Shown one piece after another: positions 8,933 to 9,261 of a stretch of DNA of 14,062 nt. Position 1 is the stretch's first letter. Each line of letters opens with the position of its first letter. Source of the DNA: Escherichia coli (GTDB lineage Bacteria > Pseudomonadota > Gammaproteobacteria > Enterobacterales > Enterobacteriaceae); the NCBI RefSeq assembly GCF_003334385.1, contig NZ_QOWN01000066.1; one strand, written 5' to 3'. Position numbers and translations under genes: made by a program. Under the pieces are notes generated by a model. That model was not told the origin of the DNA. It worked only from the letters and a program-made list of their open reading frames with translations, and ran no database searches.

Positions 8933-9261
8933 CCCGGAGGAGCGAAGCTCCTTCTGCCGTCCGGGTCTTCGGGGATTTCCCCGCAGTGGACCTTTCCGAC
9001 GGGGGATGCTCACCACGTCACGGGGCAGTTGTCCGGGGGCAGACGCAAAAGTTTTTGACGCCTGCGGCAAAAAGTTTTGTGGCTGGTACATCTCTCCCCT
9101 GGATAACTGAAACGGGATGTGGTCGTGTATGTTCCCCCGGAAAGTCCGTCTGCGGAGAACAGGCCGCAGTGCGGCGGCAGACAGGCAGAGACAGCTGCGC
9201 CATCAGGCGCAGTGGCCTTACACACCGTCAGGTGTGCAGGGAGCGCCGCATCCGGCGCGAC
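8933..9261 (-). promoter_or_regulatory. GC-rich ~329-bp element, copy 1 of a direct repeat; candidate Frpo/ssi-like single-strand promoter
   Basis: Near-identical to 11800-12128, with an 83-bp perfectly identical core at 9021-9103 (the second copy was examined for arm complementarity more closely than this one). Contains TTGACG and several short hairpins (CTGCGCC/GGCGCAG, ACACC/GGTGT). Strand given is the inferred direction of transcription; the structure would form on the + strand. ORFs called inside it on both strands are ignored. Confidence 0.5.

Follow-up and report, generated by a model that had tools for sequence, protein, structure and literature searches.

Orthologues of the class-1, Frpo-type single-stranded DNA promoter ssi1 and its mosaic paralogue ssi2 predicted in the leading region of an I-complex conjugative plasmid

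The window analysed here (the whole stretch of DNA, 14,062 nucleotides) belongs to an I-complex plasmid, of which it represents the oriT-proximal leading region, and two copies of a long repeat are found in it (Table 1). Following the annotated context of two IncK2/Z plasmids, it carries from left to right trbA-C, the relaxase gene nikB (4328-7039, -), nikA, the intergenic oriT and a set of small minus-strand genes, and this gene order agrees with that of both pESBL and pSCU-106-1. An inverted repeat (7432-7466) directly precedes the nick motif (7466-7475) on the + strand; the sequence CACATCCTG followed by TCCCG is presumably the IncP/IncI-type nick-region motif of oriTs such as those of R64 and RP4. 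The octamer YATCCTGY alone is not diagnostic of a nick site, since the window has 8 occurrences of it where 2.0 are expected; rather, the site is marked by the position of the motif beside the inverted repeat and nikA. Because the nick motif is on the + strand, it is this strand that is transferred, its 5' end being at ~7475, and the placement of the repeat on the + strand of a leading region, as proposed by the first-pass annotation, agrees with the motif and inverted repeat beside nikA. Copy 1 lies ~1,460 nt from nic, which corresponds to the ssi1 coordinate of 1459 in the ColIb-P9 leading-region record AJ238399, and copy 2 lies ~4.33 kb from it.

Table 1. Positions of the features discussed in the text (coordinates of the window)
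Feature	Position	Strand	Basis or remarks
oriT nick region: inverted repeat GGAATGTC...GACATTCC, then CACATCCTG followed by TCCCG	7432..7479	+	beside nikA
Gene downstream of copy 1: DUF4942 protein, 282 aa, GAGGAG ribosome-binding site	8037..8885	-	Pfam PF13708, E = 1e-49
Copy 1, predicted class-1 ssDNA promoter, ssi1 orthologue	8933..9261	+ (transferred strand); transcription would exit toward lower coordinates	98.2% / 98.8% identity, fold
Main long imperfect hairpin, 62 pairs, apical loop CCTG at 9061-9064	8987..9148	+	minimum-free-energy layout
A/T-rich apical stem-loop GCAAAAGTTTTTGAC / GGCAAAAAGTTTTG, UP-element-like	9040..9086	+	inside 85-bp core 9019-9103
Candidate -35, register A: TTGTGG	9077..9082	+	3' (non-template) arm
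Conserved asymmetric ~10-nt bulge GTACATCTCTC, 3' arm	9086..9096	+	CAT(C/T)T motif retained though unpaired
Candidate '-10' (register A) or -35 (register B): TGGATA	9100..9105	+	part of near-invariant CCCTGGAC block
3' module: three small perfect GC-rich hairpins (9195-9212, 9221-9236, 9243-9258)	9195..9258	+	conserved in ssi1-3
Putative operon downstream of copy 2	9747..11750	-	144-aa protein (11316-11750), 88-aa ORF (10958-11224), Rpn-family nuclease (9979-10950), 69-aa ORF (9747-9956)
Copy 2, predicted ssi2 orthologue, mosaic: ssi2-type flanks, ssi1-type apical core	11800..12128	+	five-way alignment
Putative crossover interval, ~170 nt common to the ssi2 and ssi3 neighbourhoods beyond the 329-nt unit	12130..12299		BLAST vs pESBL, pSCU-106-1
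Second long hairpin, unrelated to copies 1 and 2; class-2 ssDNA promoter (Frpo3/ssp2) homologue	13593..13945	+	upstream of KlcA-type gene 13161-13586 (-)

The genes immediately downstream of each copy, along with the anti-restriction and DUF1380 genes further to the right, are on the minus strand, and therefore the transferred + strand is their template. Copy 1 had been described as directly upstream of an unknown gene; this holds for the minus strand only, where the gene in question is the one for the DUF4942 protein, with its ATG 48 nt past the 5' edge of copy 1. Both this gene and the 144-aa gene start 48-50 nt from the 5' edge of their respective copies, and they are closely related to the pESBL genes that adjoin ssi1 (96.6% DNA identity) and ssi2 (98.6% identity). 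The DUF4942 protein aligns end to end with the N-terminal half of a DNA methyltransferase PHROG (phrog_6263, E = 9e-19); for the two proteins presumably driven by the ssi elements, Pfam and PHROGs yield only DUF4942 and this likeness to a family of phage DNA methyltransferases in its N-terminal part, and searches of NCBIfam and the PDB found nothing. In the operon assigned to copy 2, the 69-aa ORF that comes after the Rpn-family nuclease gene resembles the Rpn C-terminal domain, and it has in common with the 3' end of the full Rpn gene a ~110-nt DNA repeat of 75% identity. Of the annotated genes between the copies, only a small helix-turn-helix (HTH) gene (9465-9716, +) does not have the transferred strand as its template, and its expression is possible only after conversion to dsDNA. 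The AT-rich stretch before it (9356-9464) carries operator-like direct and inverted repeats of AAAGTGAAnnTTTCTTCACTTT.

A repeat search of the window and the alignment of the two copies confirm the direct repeat noticed at first pass, which is far above chance expectation. To call the copies near-identical was an overstatement: their global alignment has 290/335 identical positions (86.6%) and 12 gap positions, and a gapless repeat finder breaks the pair into four blocks. The longest exact run that they have in common measures 85 bp (9019-9103 = 11889-11973), slightly more than the 83 bp given earlier. On the left, a weaker likeness extends for another ~20 nt, to ~8913 and ~11780, and the right boundary of the repeat is sharp (9261 and 12128). 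The copies are indeed GC-rich, at 62.9% (copy 1) and 64.7% (copy 2) versus 52.8% for the window. At 63% GC, stop-free frames are to be expected, and the ORF list contains six ORFs of at least 50 aa that overlap copy 1. The internal indels in the alignment of five copies all measure 1, 2 or 5 nt, and for this reason no reading frame is common to the paralogues; on account of these frame-breaking indels we rejected the coding potential of the ORFs that cross the element, which had already been suspected of being artefacts. In public annotation the region is either blank or has a short 'hypothetical protein' called in it.

By homology, copy 1 is an already known element and not a new one, namely the orthologue of ssi1. 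It is identical to 'Frpo1' (ssi1) of ColIb-P9 (AJ238399.1:1459-1787) at 321/327 positions (98.2%, no gaps) and to ssi1 of pESBL (pESBL-EA11) at 98.8% over 329 nt. Samuel et al. (2024, Supplementary Table 2) include the ColIb-P9 element among the known Frpo/ssi sequences. A megablast search with the 329-nt query returned 2,025 plasmid records, nearly all of them conjugative plasmids of Escherichia, Salmonella and Shigella; an Rfam scan of the element matched no family. We also searched contigs with the pattern TGTCCGGGGN{50,80}CCCTGGA, but with 16 fixed bases and 31 permitted gap lengths this gives chance matches in GC-rich genomes, and the loci that it found were ignored.

When folded as ssDNA, as the first-pass annotation had proposed, the + strand of copy 1 forms a stable, long imperfect hairpin with a minimum free energy of -98.3 kcal/mol (shuffles -62.7 ± 4.3; z = -8.3), and the + strand of copy 2 reaches -113.2 kcal/mol (z = -10.8). 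For both copies, 0 of 100 shuffles fold as stably as the native sequence, and the internal complementarity seen at first pass is thus well founded. The complement of copy 1 is 15.7 kcal/mol weaker than the + strand (-82.6 kcal/mol, z = -4.9). Besides the apical stem-loop and the bulge of the 3' arm, the copy 1 hairpin comprises a GTCCGGGGG/CCCCTGGA stem, a 3x3 internal loop and a G·T-rich lower stem. The three hairpins of the 3' module are consecutive, have 4-nt loops and fold equally well on both strands; they are absent from the F-type Frpo.

To place this fold in the context of its family, we have taken the central hairpin of 13 members in which the anchor was placed correctly (ssi1-3 of the I-complex, Frpo1 and Frpo2 of F, Klebsiella and Salmonella IncF, a Serratia plasmid and an insect-metagenome element). 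The transferred strand is more stable than its complement, by 5-16 kcal/mol, in all 13 of them. Across the family, several conserved G·T wobbles occupy positions at which pairing is possible on the transferred strand only. For the covariation analysis 12 family members were aligned (the Salmonella 'Frpo* 5', which is mis-anchored, and 'Frpo* 7', which has no anchor, were left out), and the consensus fold of 43 pairs was predicted from the same 12-sequence alignment that was used to score it. Both sides have changed in 14 of the 43 pairs, compared with 8.0 in shuffles (1 of 500 reaches 14) and 0-6 when the partners are slid; as the 12 sequences are few and partly closely related, the shuffle counts are not probabilities, and it is the slid-partner control that keeps the relatedness. 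A standard pair is formed in 95.2% of the cells, versus 86.5% after column shuffles and at most 57% with the 3' partners slid by 1-3 columns, and the covariation score of 0.272 compares with 0.123 for column shuffles and no more than 0.087 for slid partners. These compensatory changes, which keep the intrastrand pairing, support the view that the hairpin is maintained by selection. Together with the strand asymmetry, the covariation provides independent computational support for the published fold.

The promoter boxes within the hairpin are weak. The first-pass annotation had suggested looking for -35/-10-like hexamers in a stem: conserved candidates do occur there, but none forms a pair that passes the consensus. 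When every register of the 3' (non-template) arm was scored throughout the family, two competing conserved registers were left, the best score being 5-6/12. In register A, TTGTGG comes directly after the UP-like A/T stem and a TGGAyN block follows 16-17 nt downstream; the TTGnGn pattern is kept in 11/12 aligned members (the insect-metagenome variant is without it), the '-10' matches at 2-3/6 positions only, and the bulge falls inside the spacer. In register B, the same block, which reads TGGACA in other members and TGGATA in copy 1, would serve as the -35 (5/6 to TTGACA); the -10 would fall within the conserved internal loop, at around 9123-9133, and transcription would start close to the base of the hairpin. 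In favour of register B, the insect-metagenome variants keep the TGGAyA block though they are without TTGTGG.

Could the element instead be a conventional dsDNA regulatory region, with operators for a repressor such as the HTH protein of 9465-9716, so that zygotic induction would come about by repressor dilution, as in pKM101 or p576? Induction of this type is known in other plasmids, and there is an HTH gene with operator-like repeats of its own between the copies; these repeats (AAAGTGAA...), however, are outside the element. A standard sigma-70 consensus scan of both strands of both copies found no hexamer pair that passes, leftward or otherwise, and an ordinary dsDNA promoter was therefore ruled out and rejected. 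Moreover, in a duplex site there would be no sense in conserved G·T wobbles or in a strand asymmetry of 5-16 kcal/mol. Compensatory changes keep the intrastrand pairing intact, and near-identical elements are ssDNA-dependent in the literature. All this makes a duplex operator region extremely unlikely. It is also very unlikely that the structure works in the RNA, whether as a structured 5' leader, as a site of processing or by terminating read-through from an upstream operon, and not as folded DNA. Part of the element must admittedly be transcribed as a 5' UTR, and the hairpins of the 3' module, folding equally on either strand, would also form in a minus-sense RNA. Nevertheless, these hairpins have no T-tract after them, no promoter for a +-sense RNA was found, Rfam offers no match, and the mRNA-sense (minus) strand folds markedly worse across the family because the G·T wobbles of the transferred strand become C·A mismatches.

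A different possibility is that the element is mainly an ssi priming site for the complementary strand, without contributing significantly to the expression of genes on this plasmid. The family was, after all, discovered as 'ssi' priming signals, the Frpo transcripts of F prime DNA synthesis in vitro and in vivo, and transcripts of these ssDNA promoters contribute to complementary-strand priming in vivo. Yet priming and transcription are two outcomes of one initiation event and not alternatives, each copy is 48-50 nt upstream of a ribosome-binding site and an ATG on the correct strand, and the orthologous operons of pESBL are strongly induced; we thus give hardly any credence to a function in priming alone.

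The reading that we favour, with a probability of roughly 0.93, is that copy 1 is ssi1, a class-1 (Frpo-type) ssDNA promoter of an I-complex conjugative plasmid, that copy 2 is its paralogue ssi2, and that both fold and are transcribed in the manner proposed for such promoters. Homology, strand, position and fold all agree with the Frpo/ssi-type promoter on the transferred strand of a leading region that had been suspected at first pass. During conjugation the + strand would be nicked at ~7475 and enter the recipient with its 5' end first, copy 1 after ~1.5 kb and copy 2 after ~4.3 kb. Before the complementary strand is made, each element would fold on itself into the long imperfect hairpin, in which the 3' arm would act as the non-template and the 5' arm as the template strand of a sigma-70 promoter. 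Host RNA polymerase would then start inside the stem and read down the 5' arm into the flanking ssDNA, toward oriT. The expected result is a burst of expression, of the DUF4942 gene from copy 1 and of the 144-aa, 88-aa and Rpn genes from copy 2, and the same transcripts could prime synthesis of the complementary strand. Once the region is double-stranded the hairpin would be gone and the promoter off.

The function of copy 1 is thus read by homology to ColIb-P9, pESBL and F. The homology, the logic of strand and orientation, the strand-specific fold and the covariation were computed here, and the -35/-10 hexamers are candidates in two registers; ssDNA-only activity, in-vivo start sites, zygotic induction and priming have been published for elements that are near-identical or homologous. 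Wen et al. (2025, NAR gkaf1299) found six operons of the pESBL leading region, among them those headed by ssi1-3, to be induced up to ~500-fold at 15 min after mating. The same work assigned ssi1-3 to the class-1 ssDNA promoters, mapped their starts by 5' RACE in transconjugants, used RNA-seq as well, and found the induction to be prolonged in a uvrD recipient, where conversion to dsDNA is delayed (Wen et al. 2025). For F, deletion of either Frpo1 or Frpo2 abolishes early expression (Couturier et al. 2023).

Copy 2 has a more complicated history. Its identities to the ColIb-P9 elements are intermediate (88.2% to ssi2, 87.4% to ssi1) because its flanks are of the ssi2 type but its apical core of ~85 nt is of the ssi1 type; this core (11889-11973) is identical to that of copy 1. 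The mosaic is common to the IncK2/Z plasmids pSCU-106-1 and pF16EC0186-1, and copy 2 is 97-99% identical to the ssi2 of pSCU-106-1. On the evidence of these sequences, gene conversion between paralogous promoters is suggested as the origin of the apical module.

To the right of copy 2 the window changes neighbourhood. Up to 12299 it follows that of ssi2 (95-100% identity per 100-nt bin), and from 12300 onwards that of ssi3, with 95-100% identity to the ssi3 side of pESBL versus 48% to the ssi2 side. With a crossover in the interval between copy 2 and this point, the ardA-psiA-psiB-parB-ssb block, which takes up ~6 kb in pESBL and pSCU-106-1, is consequently missing at the locus. Upstream of copy 2 there are instead a 100-aa ORF (12338-12640, -), a DUF1380 gene, the KlcA-type anti-restriction gene and the class-2-type hairpin. 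Plasmids of Salmonella Cerro and a group of ~119 kb E. coli plasmids have the same junction (full coverage, 94.6-95.3% identity). Immediately after the 100-aa ORF is a terminator-like hairpin with a T-rich tail (12316-12336, -), which could insulate the klcA operon from copy 2.

We think it somewhat probable that the ssi repeats, together with the ~170 nt of extra homology between ssi2 and ssi3, are natural recombination cassettes that remodel the leading region, such that one crossover removed ardA-psiA-psiB-parB-ssb and put the klcA/DUF1380 operon directly upstream of ssi2, the apical module of which was separately converted to the ssi1 type. If this is true, the promoter paralogues would be both expression switches and breakpoints, generating leading-region variants that differ in their anti-defence and SOS-control repertoire. 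Paralogous promoters have been anticipated as recombination substrates (Couturier et al. 2023). In experimental evolution the ssi3 operon has been lost, the target of such adaptive loss being the ssb/psiB/ardA operon, and the window documents a natural variant without that operon. What is added here to a known element is small, namely the mosaic copy 2 and this natural deletion variant.

The hairpin upstream of the KlcA-type gene has its arms at 13622-13653 and 13828-13859 and a + strand folding energy of -93.1 kcal/mol (z = -4.7). The sequences that precede ardA and klcA in pESBL match it at 87-92% identity, and on this basis it is assigned to the class 2 ssDNA promoters. It is like the known members of that class (Frpo3/ssp2; upstream of ardA, klcA and ardB) in being a long hairpin on the transferred strand of a leading region at the head of an anti-defence operon; it differs from copy 1 in having no sequence similarity to it and little strand asymmetry (-93.1 versus -88.4 kcal/mol). 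According to a 2026 preprint, the class-2 promoter also acts as a roadblock that stalls complementary-strand synthesis.

Through ssDNA promoters, anti-restriction, anti-SOS and establishment genes are expressed minutes before the defences of the recipient meet dsDNA, and it is because they allow such early expression of establishment genes that these promoters matter for the spread of antibiotic resistance. Copy 1 adds no new principle to this, as the first description of ssi1 dates from 1999 and its validation in vivo from 2025. Annotation pipelines nevertheless still skip the element, or call spurious 'hypothetical proteins' through it.

Among known systems, the nearest to copy 1 is ssi1 of ColIb-P9 and pESBL (Bates et al. 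1999; Nasim et al. 2004; Wen et al. 2025), with which it has in common 98.2-98.8% identity over the full length of 329 nt, an equal distance from nic, the orientation, the DUF4942 gene downstream and the predicted hairpin. It differs from the ColIb-P9 element by six substitutions, including the change of TGGACG to TGGATA in the conserved block 9100-9105, and its host plasmid is IncK2/Z-like and not IncI1. Copy 2 resembles the ssi2 of the same two plasmids in its flanks and in the 144-aa gene downstream, but its core is of the ssi1 type and not of the GCAAAATTTTTTGCC...GGCTAAAAATTTTG type of ssi2 and ssi3. The relationship to Frpo1 (ssiD) and Frpo2 of F (Masai & Arai 1997; Couturier et al. 2023) is more distant. 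The hairpin architecture and the strand asymmetry are alike, down to the A/T-rich apical stem, the 3'-arm bulge with its CATyT, the GTCCGGGG/CCCTGGAC stem, the 3x3 internal loop and the G·T-rich lower stem. However, recognisable DNA similarity to the F elements is confined to the central ~110 nt (~77%, query 98-208), and the 5' and 3' modules are unrelated, the F-type elements being without the three small 3' hairpins.
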